DNA of 64,000 bases from Schmidtea polychroa. Lineage: Eukaryota. The stretch spans positions 8,620,001 through 8,684,000 of the forward strand of contig CM097885.1 of the NCBI GenBank assembly GCA_044892525.1, written 5' to 3'. Below are positions 16,185 through 28,086 of this stretch, in pieces. The notes under the pieces are model-generated. The model did no database searches. It was not told the DNA's origin and worked only from the letters and a program-made list of their open reading frames with translations. Both the position numbers and the translations under genes were made by a program. Every line of letters begins with the position of its first letter. Position 1 is the first letter of the stretch.

Positions 16185-16630
16185 AGTAGATGGATGTGAC
16201 ACCGCCAGATCATGTCACCGCTAGATCACCTACCCCCCACCCCCCCCCCCCCCGACAGAAAAATTTTTTTAAAGATTTTTTTTTCAAGGTCAAATTTTTA
16301 ACAAAGACAATGACTCATCAAGGTCATTGAAACAAAGAATTTTTTTTTGTTTTAATTATCGATTATTATTAAGTGATCTAGCGGTGACATACCATTTGAC
16401 TTCCCAGAACTTTTTCAATTTTCAAAATTATTTAAATATTTATACATCATTTTGAAGGCCAGGCAAAGATCTATCTTTTGAGCCATAGAAATAATTTTTA
16501 TCATCAGTGGTACAAAAGTTATTAATTTTTTAGTCAGAGACTGATTTATGGTTAAAATTTTCAAAAATGTTCAAAGTTTACTAAGTAATTTGCGGGTGAT
16601 TTGTCAATCATCCAATCAGGTACGACTTTG
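16185..16630 (+). repeat. Left TIR of the Polinton (about 445 bp)
   Basis: Reverse complement of 27432-28086 minus the internal duplication; followed by (ATT)n at 16685-16832. Confidence 0.93.
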
Positions 16631-16913
16631 TTTATCATTATTATTGGGAAAGATATTAACGCCCGCGCGGAATATTTTCAAAAATATTATTATTATTTTC
16701 AAAGTCTTAATCAATATTATTATTATTATTATTATTATTATTATTATTATTATTATTATTATTATTATTATTATTATTATTATTATTATTATTATTATTA
16801 TTATTATTATTATTATTATTATTATTATTATTGGGTAATGCTCGCAAGGGTACTGGTCACGCTCAACAAGTCACAAGGGTATTATTAAACAAATCAACAA
16901 AACATACATTTAT

Positions 16914-17413
16914 TTAAACAATAAAATAATGTAAAATTAACAAAGGTAAACTAAATATTGATGTACTACTATTCGCAGCAATATTGTTTGAAATTGGTAA
17001 CGTCGAATTGATTTTCAGATATTCTATTGATCCTTTGATTGTTTGAATTTCTCCTAATAATAATTCGATCATTTTAACAAATAATCATGCTTCTTATCAA
17101 TAATTTTCATATTCTTTTTATTTTCAACAATAGAGTTATTGAAAACTTCAATATGATCAATCAATTTAATTTTTATATTTTGTATATATGCAAATGATAG
17201 TTCATAACTGTTTTCTAAATTCTCCAATCTTTGAGATATTCTTTTTCCTGGATGCTTTGACCATTTTGGTTTGTCAAGAATATATAAAATATCCATCAAC
17301 TTGGCTGTATTCGGACAAACACATATTGATTTATTAAAAGACTCCACTGTTATTGTTGTATTGTGTGAGCACACACTCGTTATAATAATTAGCAATATGA
17401 ATATAGTTTTCAT
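16914..17413 (-). pseudogene. Polinton accessory gene: predicted secreted/surface coiled-coil protein with a hydrophobic C-tail; one frameshift
   Basis: Signal peptide MKTIFILLIIITSVCS; a 1-nt shift at about 17072 continues the frame as MIELLLGEIQ...SSTSIFSLPLLILHYFIV*. Confidence 0.65.
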
Positions 17414-17518
17414 GGTGTATCAAATCAAAACCTTTCTTTTACATTTATAGTCTATCAACCAATCAAAATCATACGGTATTAGTATAAATAAAACATCATA
17501 TTTTAAATTATTGTAGAA

Positions 17519-18034
17519 ATGTCTCATTTTATGGAAAATCTTTTAAGCGAACTTATCAATAAGAATATTATGGAAAGCCTCAGTTTCCTGGTCGATCGGA
17601 CCGAAAAGATTATAGAAGGAAATCATATTGATTATGAGGATGTGCTCAATTCCGAATGCCTCGAAACGAAAAAATTTTATTTTCATAGGATTTTTAACTG
17701 TCTATGCGACGAAGAGATGAAGTGGACCCGAATACTAGTAGGGTTCGCTTATATGAAGATCATAATCGAAAGAAGTTTATGGGACTCTGAACATTATTAT
17801 CAGTGGTCTCAAGAAGTAATACTTTTATTAATATTTATTTTATTAATATTTATTTTCTAGATAATCAAATCAAAGTTTCAGCCATGGATTGAAGCCAATG
17901 GCGGATGGGGCGTGCTGAATCAACTCGCCAGAAATGCGAAGGAAATAGATCAACAGAAAATCAAATTTAAAAACTATTTAAAACTTGCAACAGGTGTTGC
18001 TATTTTGTATGTTTTATGCAGGTTTTTTAAATAA
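17519..18034 (+). CDS. Bcl-2 family protein (156 aa, 2 exons) carried by the Polinton
   Basis: Intron 17816-17860 (GT..TTCTAG); BH1-like DEEMKWTRILVGFAY, BH2 FQPWIEANGGWG, C-terminal anchor LATGVAILYVLCRFFK. Confidence 0.85.
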
Positions 18035-18111
18035 AAATTAATATAGTTATTTTGTTTGATTTTTAAATAAAATTTTAAATAAATTTACAAACACTAATTA
18101 ACTAAAATTTA

Positions 18112-18536
18112 TTAATTAACACATTCACAGTCATCATCTCCACATTTCATTATATTTTCAACGACATGATCAATACAATCATTCGTAATATTATCTTTAG
18201 GTTCATCTTTAGGTTCCTCTATAGGTTCCTCTACAGGTTCATCTATAGGTTCATCTATAGGTTCATAGATTTCCTCATCAATTTCTTGAGTTTCTTCCTC
18301 ATCAATTTCTTGAGTTTCTTCCTCATCAATTTCTTGAGTTTCTTCCTCATCATCAAATCCTGTATCTTGACTCTCAACTATCCAGCCGATATTTAAGGCA
18401 TTTGTAATAGATAATATGTCCTCAATTTTCACACCAGCTATTTCTGCTAACTTTTCCAACAAAAAGTTGATTACAAATTCTAAATAATAAATAATTCGGT
18501 AATTAATTAATCATGTTAACCTTTTTCTGCAGTCAT
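18112..18536 (-). CDS. Acidic low-complexity Polinton protein, 2 exons
   Basis: Exon 1 MTAEK(E), intron 18480-18520, then an in-frame ORF with (DEEETQEI)x3, EP repeats and a Cys-rich tail. Confidence 0.7.
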
Positions 18537-18669
18537 TTTCATCACTTTAAAACTATATTATAAGTTTTTTTATAGATTTTCTTTGTTAAATTTGCATGTC
18601 ATTTGCATTTATGTTGCAATTAATAAAGAGAAAAAACAAATATGACTAATACATTTATTAAATATAACA

Positions 18670-19080
18670 TTAAAATATTTGTGAAAGTCTAGCAGACATT
18701 ATTTTCCAAATAGGAGAATATACATCATTATTATCAACTTTATATCCCTGGATTGCAATTGTTATATACCAATTTTCATTTTCTTTGAAACTGATTTCAT
18801 CAAAAGCATCATAAAATCTTGCATATCTATTGTTGAACCATGCATGTTGATTACACGACAGATTCGAATCTATCCGTTTAAAAACATCATCAATAGTTTT
18901 GACATCAATCATTGAAAGCGTGCCGGATAAGAATTGAAATTTAGTTGGAATTAGCTTGACTGGTGCAACCAATTTCATATTGATTTCTTCTTTCAAAAAA
19001 TACATTTTGTAGTTGTGGAACATTTGAACTGGTTGTACCATTTCTTTAGGTTTTTCGGTGCTTGAAATTTTCTTGGTCAT
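18670..19080 (-). CDS. Polinton hypothetical protein, possibly an OB-fold ssDNA-binding protein
   Basis: Intact 136-aa ATG ORF; beta-rich C-terminus WYITIAIQGY...SPIWKI is reminiscent of viral SSBs (weak). Confidence 0.55.
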   Translation of the reverse strand: MTKKISSTEKPKEMVQPVQMFHNYKMYFLKEEINMKLVAPVKLIPTKFQFLSGTLSMIDVKTIDDVFKRIDSNLSCNQHAWFNNRYARFYDAFDEISFKENENWYITIAIQGYKVDNNDVYSPIWKIMSARLSQIF

Positions 19081-25891: not shown

Positions 25892-26154
25892 TAAATTTGA
25901 TGTTTAATAAATGTATCCTTTCCTTTGTTGTTGTGATTAATATTATTATTTTAATATTATTATTATTTTTAATTAATATTATTATTATTTCGAAAAATAT
26001 TATTATTTTTAATTAATTTTATTATTATTCATATAAATATTATTAATTCGAGATAAAGACTACCTATGCCTGAAGCATGCACAGTGCAAGTTAACAAAGG
26101 CATGACTAACAAAGACAGTCACATGTAATTTCAGAGTGATTTACATGTATGCGT

Positions 26155-26250
26155 GTGATTGGTTGAGAGAGTAAAATATTCAGTGTATATGCGTGTGTGT
26201 CTATATTCTGATTGGCTGGGACAGGAAAATATTCATTCTCTTTATAAACA
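26155..26250 (+). promoter_or_regulatory. Putative Pol II promoter (two inverted CCAAT boxes + TATA) for the terminal acidic gene
   Basis: GATTGGTT at about 26157, GATTGGCT at about 26210, TTTATAAA at 26241, ATG at 26325; similar CCAAT+TATA pairs precede the Bcl-2 and RING genes. Confidence 0.5.
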
Positions 26251-26324
26251 TTGACAAATCTAAAATTTGTCACAATTATTTTAAAATTTTCAAAAATTTT
26301 CAACAATTTTCAACAATTTTCAAA

Positions 26325-26994
26325 ATGGACAAAAATAATATTTTAAGAAGCATGATGGCTTGCGATAATGGTATATTATTTATTTTTATTTATTTTTTAT
26401 ATATTTATTTGTAGATGATTTATGGTACCAGGTGACCGAAAACGAGAATGGATTTAATTTGAATTGCACCTATGGTAATTTTATTTTTTTTTTATTTATT
26501 AATATTATTATTATTTAGATGTTATAATGTTGAGTGACGAAGAAGACGAAATAATAATTATTAGCGATGAAGAGGAATCACCAATTATTAATCATCACGA
26601 CTTATCAAGTAAATTATTATTATTTTTATTATTTAATTTAAAAAAACTGTTTTAGGAAATAGTCAAAGAGAAAATTCCCCCAATTTTGTTGGAGAAACAG
26701 AAAATTTAATAGGTGCAATCATTGAAGATACACGTAAATTTTTATTATTATTATATGTAATTTTTAAAAATTGATTTAGGAAGTTCAATTATTTTGGAGG
26801 ACATATATGATCCTATTATGGATGATCTATATGCTCCCATTAATGTGGATGTCAAGGAAATTGCTCCAGAGACAAAATTATTTAATACCCCTATTCGGGA
26901 TGCTTCTATTCATGAGGTTTTTGATGCCCCCACTTTAACCGGGGATGTCCTCTCTGAGAATGATACAGATTCAGATTCTGAATCTAAATGTTAG
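26325..26994 (+). CDS. 5-exon acidic Polinton protein (162 aa) with tandem SIM-like motifs
   Basis: Exons 26325-26370, 26415-26474, 26519-26608, 26656-26733 and 26780-26994 join without stops via four phase-1 GT-AG introns; DVIMLSDEEDEIIIISDEEES. Confidence 0.78.
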
Positions 26995-27094
26995 TATTTT
27001 TTATTTTATTTATTTTATAAATATTTATTTTAATAATTTCTTAAATTAAAAATAACATTCTGTAGAATATTTAAATTATTTTAAACATAAATTT

Positions 27095-27187
27095 TATATG
27101 AAACATGATGAAAATTATATGAAACATGATGAAAATTATATGAAACATGATGAAAATTATATGAAACATGATGAAGTTTATATGAAA
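27095..27187. repeat. 20-bp tandem repeat (TATATGAAACATGATGAAAA)x4
   Basis: Direct reading. Confidence 0.9.
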
Positions 27188-27431
27188 TTAATGATTCTAA
27201 CTAATCTAGAGAATGTTATTTTTATTTAAGTTTAGAAATAATAATAATAATAATAATAATAATAATAATAATAATAATAATAATAATAATAATAATAATA
27301 ATAATAATAATAATAATAATAATTTTAATAATAATAATAATAATAGTAATAATAATAATAATAATAATAATAATAATAATAATAATAATAATAATAATAA
27401 TAATAATAATAATAATAATAATAATAATAAT

Positions 27432-28086
27432 CAAAGTCGTACCTGATTGGATGATTGACAAATCACCCGCAAATTACTTAGTAAATTTTGAACATTTTTG
27501 AAAATTTTAACCATAAATCAGTCTCTGACTAAAAAATTAATAACTTTTGTACCACTGATGATAAAAATTATTTCTATGGCTTAAAAGATAGATTTTCGTC
27601 TGGCCTTCAAATTGATGTATAATTATTTAAATAATTTTGAAAATTGAAAAGGTTCTGGGAAGTCAAAAGGTATGTCACCGCTAGATCACTTAATAATATT
27701 TTTGAAAAATAATAATAATTTTAACCAAATTAGTGTCTGACTAAAAAATTAATAACTTTTGTACCACTGATGATAAAAATTATTTCTATGGCTCAAAAGA
27801 TAGATTTTCGCCCGGCCTTCAAAATGATGTATAAATATTTAAATAATTTTGAAAATTGAAAAAGTTCTGGGAAGTCAAAAGGTATGTCACCGCTAGATCA
27901 CTTAATAATAATAATCGATAATTAAAACAAAAAAAAAATCTTTGTTTCAATGACCTCGATGAGTCATTGTCTTTGTTAAAAATTTGACCTTGAAAAAAAA
28001 ATTTCTTAAAAATTTTTTCCCCCCCCGGGGGGGGGGGGTAGGTGATCTAGCGGTGACATGATCTGGCGGTGACACATCCATCTACT
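27432..28086 (-). repeat. Right TIR of the Polinton with an internal about 215-bp tandem duplication
   Basis: About 27505-27697 is repeated at about 27719-27908; preceded by (AAT)n at 27237-27430. Confidence 0.93.

Follow-up and report, generated by a model that had tools for sequence, protein, structure and literature searches.

We analysed a 64,000-nucleotide stretch of the Schmidtea polychroa genome (hereafter, the window; C1:8620001-8684000, in a 781-Mb assembly with four chromosome-sized contigs). At window positions 16185-28086 lies a Maverick/Polinton copy that is bounded by terminal inverted repeats (TIRs), carries genes for virion proteins and lacks the DNA polymerase gene pPolB. A first-pass annotation had offered two readings of this copy: either pPolB was deleted from an ordinary Polinton, or a polymerase-less genome is replicated in trans by another element while supplying capsids. 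Had the virion kit of a Polinton without polymerase proved functional, this would have been a new life-style, that of an endogenous satellite virus. We conclude that the element is an ordinary broken copy and not a new kind of helper-dependent virus, and that it is probably a dead, non-autonomous deletion copy of an abundant Maverick/Polinton family that encodes pPolB. The element matters little in itself. The result is a clean negative and a caution: where a genome holds thousands of Mavericks, individual copies without a hallmark gene are to be expected.

A polymerase-bearing relative and the deletion junction

A relative of the element that retains the polymerase lies at C4:31661333-31679700. 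This 18,368-bp copy (hereafter, the C4 copy) has the same termini and a perfect target-site duplication (TSD), AGTGTT, and it is collinear with window positions 16832-27156 at 93-96% identity, except in the penton region, where it carries a divergent allele. Between its last accessory gene and its right TIR, the C4 copy has about 5 kb of extra sequence, which includes an open pPolB frame of 1411 amino acids (positions 3497-7729 of segment L034). The core of this frame matches PF03175 (E = 9.2e-29), and the protein is 63% identical over 705 amino acids to a pPolB relic elsewhere in the window. The whole 1411-residue protein and its halves, including the 911-residue C-terminal part, match zero Pfam families, and the core trimmed to 701 residues matches PF03175 with 101 bits. 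Long poly-N and acidic tails on pPolB seem to suppress the match, so that a missing Pfam match on such proteins is unreliable; the misses on the whole protein and its halves probably come from HMMER filters acting on the low-complexity tails.

The two copies differ in layout at their right ends. In the C4 copy, TTTAGAA-(AAT)n is followed by a unique spacer, a second (AAT)n tract, pPolB, a 3′ region, the motif CAGTACCCTTGCGAGCATTACCC, a further (AAT)n tract and the TIR subrepeats. In the window element, TTTAGAA-(AAT)n at 27237-27432 runs straight into the TIR subrepeats, and the 23-base inner-TIR motif CAGTACCCTTGCGAGCATTACCC is found within the element in the left arm only, at 16833-16855. Because the (AAT)n tract leads directly into the TIR and the inner motif is kept only on the left, we conclude that the lost piece was flanked by two direct (AAT)n tracts and included the inner part of the right TIR. 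This one-sided loss argues that the polymerase-less form is secondary.

Searching with the family pPolB by tblastn gave no match between the TIRs, in agreement with the first-pass annotation; the sole match in the window is the relic, at 55741-57855. A Pfam scan of the 15 open reading frames (ORFs) between the TIRs found zero helicase, primase or polymerase domains, with the multi-exon gene at 26326-26993 lying outside the scan. Deletion of pPolB from an ordinary Polinton, the first of the two earlier readings, is thus borne out by the collinear C4 copy and by the junction at 27237-27432. The places at which a junction had been anticipated, 19330-19515 and 25900-26050, both fall inside blocks that are collinear with the polymerase-bearing copy. 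Sister copies with the same TIRs carry pPolB and the window copy has a private junction, which is the pattern that had been named beforehand as speaking against a replicating polymerase-less lineage.

We examined how widely this junction occurs. In all genome searches, the best 40-150 candidates per query were scored, out of longer first-look lists. With a junction query spanning the gene tail, the microsatellite and the inner TIR (window positions 26780-27700; best 40 of 1083 candidates scored), matches extended across the junction into the TIR at two of the 40 places, namely the window itself and C1:8977751. Seventeen of the 38 other places coincide with places that run on into the pPolB 5′ region, and one more lies 2.6 kb from a same-strand match to the pPolB 5′ region. 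With the matching stretch of the C4 copy as query, from the gene tail to the pPolB 5′ region, at least 31 of the best 40 places hold gene tail and pPolB in one piece. For the eight copies with the most similar major capsid proteins (MCPs; 98-99% amino acid identity), 2.5 kb of downstream sequence was taken; in all eight, the MCP gene is followed after 2.2-3.0 kb by a pPolB N-terminus.

The second place that shares the junction belongs to a copy at C1:8967150, about 331 kb away, which matches the window element at 99.9% identity along 11.9 kb. The 2-kb flanks of the two copies agree at 100% and 99.9%, and the TSD and junction bases are the same. Host DNA at window positions 6174-7934 and 41100-42100 recurs at 100% identity at C1:8957139 and C1:8992365; duplicated host sequence is found 10 kb before and 13 kb after the element. 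The identical flanks, the shared TSD and the duplicated host DNA rule out an independent insertion, and we conclude that the second copy results from a segmental (or assembly) duplication of at least 36 kb. This extent stays a lower bound, a search with 20-kb flanks having been dominated by other repeats. Either the segment was duplicated very recently in the genome, or the duplication was created by the assembly. The duplicated stretch of at least 36 kb also holds host genes (ZER1-like and SNF2/CHD-like).

These data bear directly on the second earlier reading, in which the element would belong to a propagating helper-dependent (satellite-like) Polinton lineage that lacks the polymerase, supplies capsids and is replicated in trans. 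The intact TIRs, the open MCP gene and the open small ORFs are in keeping with such a lineage. Moreover, amplified polB-lacking polintons, found beside more complete and highly similar ones, are noted in a butterfly (bioRxiv 10.1101/2025.02.07.637071); unlike there, the only multiplication seen here among the places scored is the segmental duplication. Several independent insertions of the polymerase-less gene order had been proposed as the sign of a replicating lineage. However, no independent insertion with the polymerase-less structure and a different TSD was found among the 40 places scored of 1083, and the sole second copy is a segmental duplicate. In addition, the closest relatives carry the polymerase, the absence of the inner TIR from the right arm alone identifies the deletion as secondary, and genes for the functions to be supplied (capsid, packaging and maturation) are not intact: ATPase and protease have stops, and the penton gene has a frame change. 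The integrase has a stop as well. We consider a lineage of this kind highly improbable.

We attach still less weight to an assembly artefact, in which two (AAT)n tracts were collapsed and the true locus still carries pPolB. The junction is indeed a long microsatellite, one frame change lies in a homopolymer, and the 100%-identical duplicate about 331 kb away may itself be an assembly problem. However, both duplicates have the same structure, and the signs of decay, namely nonsense codons and a mismatched TSD, are not of a kind that assembly creates.

Boundaries, gene content and decay of the element

Both TIRs noted in the first-pass annotation are present, with termini AGTAGATGG at 16185 and CCATCTACT at 28086; the element opens with AGTAGATGGATGTG and closes with the reverse complement of AGTAGATGGATGTG. 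The arms consist of a C/G run, an internal subrepeat of about 215 bp (one copy on the left, two on the right) and an (ATT)n/(AAT)n tract. The first 216 bases of the element, used as the TIR query, have full-length matches elsewhere in the genome at 92-100% identity (best 40 of 737 first-look candidates). The element thus has the long TIRs of Polintons, and it has the 6-bp TSD that had been described, but in the latter only five of the six bases match (TAGATA versus TAAATA). A 5′-AG terminus and a 6-bp TSD were reportedly put forward as hallmarks of Polinton families by Kapitonov and Jurka in 2006. Both ends were taken for eight other loci, which represent seven distinct insertions. All seven have perfect 6-bp TSDs at the same termini (AGTGTT, TACAAG, ACTGTG, GTTATT, ATAATA, TTATTA and AAATAT). 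Over their terminal 180 bp, the left and right arms of the window element are 89.4% identical; in the eight other loci, this value is 92-98%. The features of the element are as follows, in window coordinates.

16179-16184, no strand: left copy of the TSD, TAGATA, with five of six bases as in the right copy
16185-16855, plus strand: left TIR, with terminal AGTAGATGG, C-run, subrepeat of about 215 bp, (ATT)n at about 16713-16832 and inner motif at 16833-16855 (repeat comparison)
16917-17419, minus strand: homologue of a 168-residue accessory ORF, in two tblastn pieces in different frames, with a frame change at about 17072-17078; open over 168 residues in two other copies
17519-17860, plus strand: accessory ORF of 113 residues, open, without family match (ORF, Pfam, tblastn)
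18112-18510, minus strand: acidic repeat-containing accessory ORF of 132 residues, open (ORF, Pfam, tblastn)
18670-19080, minus strand: accessory ORF of 136 residues, open (ORF, tblastn)
19554-19922, minus strand: accessory ORF of 122 residues, open (ORF, tblastn)
20044-20508, minus strand: TATA-binding-protein (TBP)-like gene with an in-frame stop, first base 20334 (PF00352; tblastn)
20539-21207, plus strand: A32-like packaging ATPase with an in-frame stop at 20707 (Pox_A32 match; Walker-A part upstream of the stop)
21220-21749, plus strand: basic small ORF, homologue of a 177-residue frame, with a frame change (about 21450-21579) and stops (tblastn)
21733-22887, plus strand: probable rve integrase, with a chromodomain in its C-terminal part, interrupted by an in-frame stop at 22087, and with a probable intron at 22202-22261 (weak Pfam matches, tblastn)
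22818-23901, plus strand: penton (minor capsid) gene with a frame change within an A9 run at 23292-23300 (tblastn; fold of the homologous frame)
23894-24262, plus strand: small ORF of 122 residues between penton and MCP genes, open, 100% identical to its homologue in the C4 copy
24259-25479, plus strand: double-jelly-roll MCP of 406 residues, open (homology, predicted structure)
25421-25891, plus strand: adenain-like cysteine protease with an in-frame stop at 25601 (Peptidase_C5 match; tblastn)
26326-26993, plus strand: putative acidic accessory gene of several exons separated by short GT-AG introns, with about 93% identity to the C4 copy (sequence reading, splicing inferred)
27237-27432, no strand: deletion junction, a single (AAT)n tract that replaces about 5 kb comprising spacer, pPolB and inner right TIR (comparison with the C4 copy)
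27433-28086, minus strand: right TIR, with two subrepeats and without the inner motif kept by the left arm (repeat and motif comparison)
28087-28092, no strand: right copy of the TSD, TAAATA (end comparison)

The annotated block of ATPase, small ORF, integrase, penton, small ORF, MCP and protease is supported by homology (Pfam, Foldseek and tblastn), with weak matches for the integrase, and seven accessory ORFs, one of them TBP-like (PF00352), agree with the approximate number given earlier. Homology or fold identifies all four genes of the morphogenetic module: double-jelly-roll MCP, penton, FtsK/A32-like ATPase and adenain-like protease. The ATPase has a Pfam match to Pox_A32 and the protease to Peptidase_C5 (E = 3.7e-6). 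The predicted MCP structure (predicted local distance difference test score, pLDDT, 88.9) is matched by Foldseek to the double-jelly-roll capsid proteins of SGIV, PBCV-1, Sputnik and mavirus, with E values down to 1.4e-16. For the penton, a model of the homologous open frame of a sister copy (pLDDT 93.8) has the mavirus penton as its best Foldseek match (E = 1.2e-7), followed by the adenovirus penton base. The stop at 25472 probably precedes the start codon of the protease, judging from the reading frames.

The integrase frame has weak rve/rve_3 and chromo matches that lie below the Pfam cut-offs. Within it, an (ATT)n tract at 22202-22261 would encode poly-Ile if translated; the tract is 60 nt long, starts with GT and ends with AG. 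Excising it fuses ...TDLG to KEF... and gives back a motif resembling TDxGxEF, which we take to be an integrase motif. We consider this tract to be probably a microsatellite-bearing intron; in the C4 copy it is 27 codons longer. The TBP-like gene matches PF00352 with E = 1.7e-11 in the window copy and 6.5e-15 in its open 154-residue homologue. Such a gene is unusual cargo for a Maverick and could act on transcription.

The state of the genes was judged by tblastn, with their open counterparts in the C4 copy as reference. Four genes are cut by an in-frame stop: the TBP-like gene at 20334, the ATPase at 20707 (past the Walker-A part), the integrase at 22087 and the protease at 25601. Frame changes are found in three places, in the homologues of the 168-residue ORF (about 17072-17078) and the 177-residue ORF (about 21450-21579) and in the penton gene. 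The MCP gene, the 122-residue ORF that precedes it and several accessory ORFs are open, and the MCP gene is the only open one of the four morphogenetic genes. In the assembled DNA, four to seven genes of the element are interrupted, among them those for ATPase, integrase and protease and probably that for the penton. The full virion kit described in the first-pass annotation is therefore present as genes but is not intact.

The window carries the penton allele that prevails in the genome: the majority of the 150 places scored (4542 first-look candidates) match its residues 31-232 at 96-98% identity, in open frames of 360 residues. The A9 run at the penton frame change (23292-23300) also differs in length in two of three other aligned copies. 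Three other copies match across the frame change, and a sub-lineage with a common penton frame change was considered; it was ruled out by the alignment, which has separate length differences at the A9 run. C-to-T hypermutation as the source of the stops was likewise ruled out. The substitution spectrum relative to the C4 copy is symmetric (130 versus 118), and thus there is no sign of editing.

Order of events and alternative origins of the deletion

The structure of the copy, its private junction and its broken genes are directly shown. From them we infer the following order of events, with slippage or unequal recombination as the mechanism of deletion. A full-length element would have integrated at the locus with a 6-bp TSD. 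About 5 kb would then have been lost, probably in situ, between two direct (AAT)n tracts, the first upstream of pPolB and the second bordering the right TIR on its inner side, and the lost stretch would have comprised the spacer, the whole of pPolB and the inner part of the right TIR. Continued decay would have introduced the nonsense codons, the frame changes, the TSD mismatch and the divergence of the TIR arms, and a segmental duplication would have copied the locus once, with at least 36 kb of host DNA, to a site about 331 kb away. An element with this history would neither replicate nor supply capsids.

Several points weigh against this scheme. The sequence does not date the deletion, as an identical structure would result if the loss had preceded integration. 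The penton and MCP genes are only about 2% diverged from mainstream copies, which fits poorly with the 89% identity of the TIR arms, and mosaicism among sub-lineages may confuse such dating. The penton frame change in the A9 homopolymer may reflect slippage or a sequencing error. With the best 40 of about 1100-1300 candidates scored, rarer copies with the same junction could be missed, and the remaining 20 of the 38 other junction-query places fell outside the 40 scored with the polymerase-bearing query, so that their polymerase-bearing state is not directly shown. Finally, the structure is that of the assembly.

Alternatively, the deletion of about 5 kb may have occurred during replication, before integration, yielding a one-off defective genome that was integrated a single time, assisted in trans by proteins from co-resident full-length elements, and did not spread further. 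Both termini and a TSD are present, so that the unit must have integrated as a TIR-to-TIR molecule, and the many near-identical pPolB copies (98-100% identity at 36 further places) are potential helpers. The state of other family members would also fit. Pairing of TIRs gave elements of 3.4, 6.6, 7.6, 8.6, 15.9, 18.4 and 19.1 kb; the copies of 6.6, 7.6, 8.6 and 3.4 kb have differing internal deletions, and four of the seven distinct insertions sampled are internal-deletion forms with perfect TSDs and arms that are 92-98% identical, as would be expected if defective genomes were frequent. The 6.6-kb form keeps essentially only pPolB, the 7.6-kb form has accessory genes and part of pPolB, and the 3.4-kb form holds the last 312 residues of pPolB. 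However, an origin of this kind is indistinguishable from deletion in situ, and the location of the junction in microsatellites, together with the further decay, fits a slow erosion within the genome. None of the 40 places scored holds a second insertion, and the single deletion form tested for spread, that of 3.4 kb, proved to be represented by local duplicates only. Transposition of this form was rejected, its junction occurring at four places that all lie at C4:84.09-84.30 Mb or on a small contig with the same flanks. We regard a one-off defective genome as a possible but unlikely origin of the window copy.

We are more doubtful still of a broader version, in which the family routinely makes TIR-bounded defective genomes that are integrated in trans with the help of intact relatives, much like viral defective-interfering genomes. 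The window copy would then be a captured polymerase-less example, and the forms would include polymerase-less genomes with only the virion module, polymerase-only genomes (6.6 kb) and stubs of 3.4-8.6 kb.

Our preferred reading is a dead deletion copy that probably lost its polymerase in situ. The window element belongs among the internally deleted non-autonomous DNA transposons. Like these, it has the termini and most of the collinear interior of an autonomous relative and is missing a segment with an essential gene; the deletion ends in direct repeats, and several deletion forms coexist in the family. Non-autonomous Polinton entries exist in Repbase. The window element resembles autonomous Polintons/Mavericks in its TIRs with 5′-AG...CT-3′ ends, its 6-bp TSD and its genes for MCP, penton, A32-like ATPase and adenain-like protease; its integrase frame has weak rve matches, and its full-length siblings of 18.4 kb encode pPolB. 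Unlike them, the window copy has no pPolB and no inner right TIR, and four to seven of its genes are broken by stops or frame changes. By definition, Polintons have pPolB and an rve integrase (PMC5499653), and they are typically 15-25 kb long (PMC6431247); with zero pPolB matches between its TIRs, the window element falls outside the autonomous class.

Polinton-like viruses and virophages have the same module of MCP, penton, ATPase and protease, and many of them lack pPolB, as stated in PMC5499653. The window element has this morphogenetic module in common with them. However, they are independent lineages with a replication gene of their own (for example, a helicase-inactivated pDNAP fusion), whereas the window element derives from a polymerase-bearing form by a visible deletion and has no substitute replication gene in the 15 ORFs scanned.

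The Maverick family and other features of the window

The family itself is enormous in size and young, and it is a more interesting object than the window element, with thousands of near-identical copies, open capsid genes and mosaic modules in an animal genome. All 102 MCP matches that were scored (of 5003 first-look candidates) are full length, free of stops and 98-100% identical in amino acid sequence, and the penton candidates are mostly 360-residue open frames. The abundance and near-identity of these copies suggest recent or ongoing large-scale activity of the family.

Modules are combined differently in different copies. The C4 penton is 59-61% identical to that of the window, and the neighbouring genes are 91-100% identical. 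Copies with an MCP 98-99% identical to that of the window have pPolB N-termini that are only 44-71% identical to the C4 type, and their DNA downstream of the MCP gene is unrelated to that of the C4-type copy. Such mosaic modules point to recombination between co-resident lineages. Two further TIR-bounded units with perfect TSDs, at C1:181088188-181107273 (19.1 kb) and C3:122006261-122022210 (15.9 kb), resemble the window element at the DNA level in the TIRs only and have almost no tblastn matches to the family proteins.

The separate pPolB-bearing relic reported in the first-pass annotation lies at 55723-57864 on the minus strand. It matches PF03175 (E = 8e-30), aligns with the family protein over residues 504-1205 (63% identity) and bears a zinc motif resembling Endonuclease_7. 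The relic had been said to share TIR motifs with the window element. The inner motif does occur nearby, at 61979 and 63018, but 4 kb from the pPolB fragment, and the association is weaker than had been stated. About 4 kb from the relic, there are three repeats of a RING-finger ORF (zf-C3HC4_3), spaced at a period of about 1040 bp (61358, 62397 and 63430; region 60900-63978), and the first two repeats are each followed by the inner-TIR motif and (AAT)n. Region 60900-63978 resembles one end of a related element whose terminal gene is different.

The G+C content of the window is about 27%. The standard genetic code fits its reading frames; the ciliate code (table 6) was tried, and frames were no better than under the standard code. 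Short GT-AG introns can be seen by eye in the window sequence. At 9294-10575, on the plus strand, there are fragments of a hAT transposase, with a BED/Spin-doc zinc finger, a hAT dimerisation domain and a stop between the frames.

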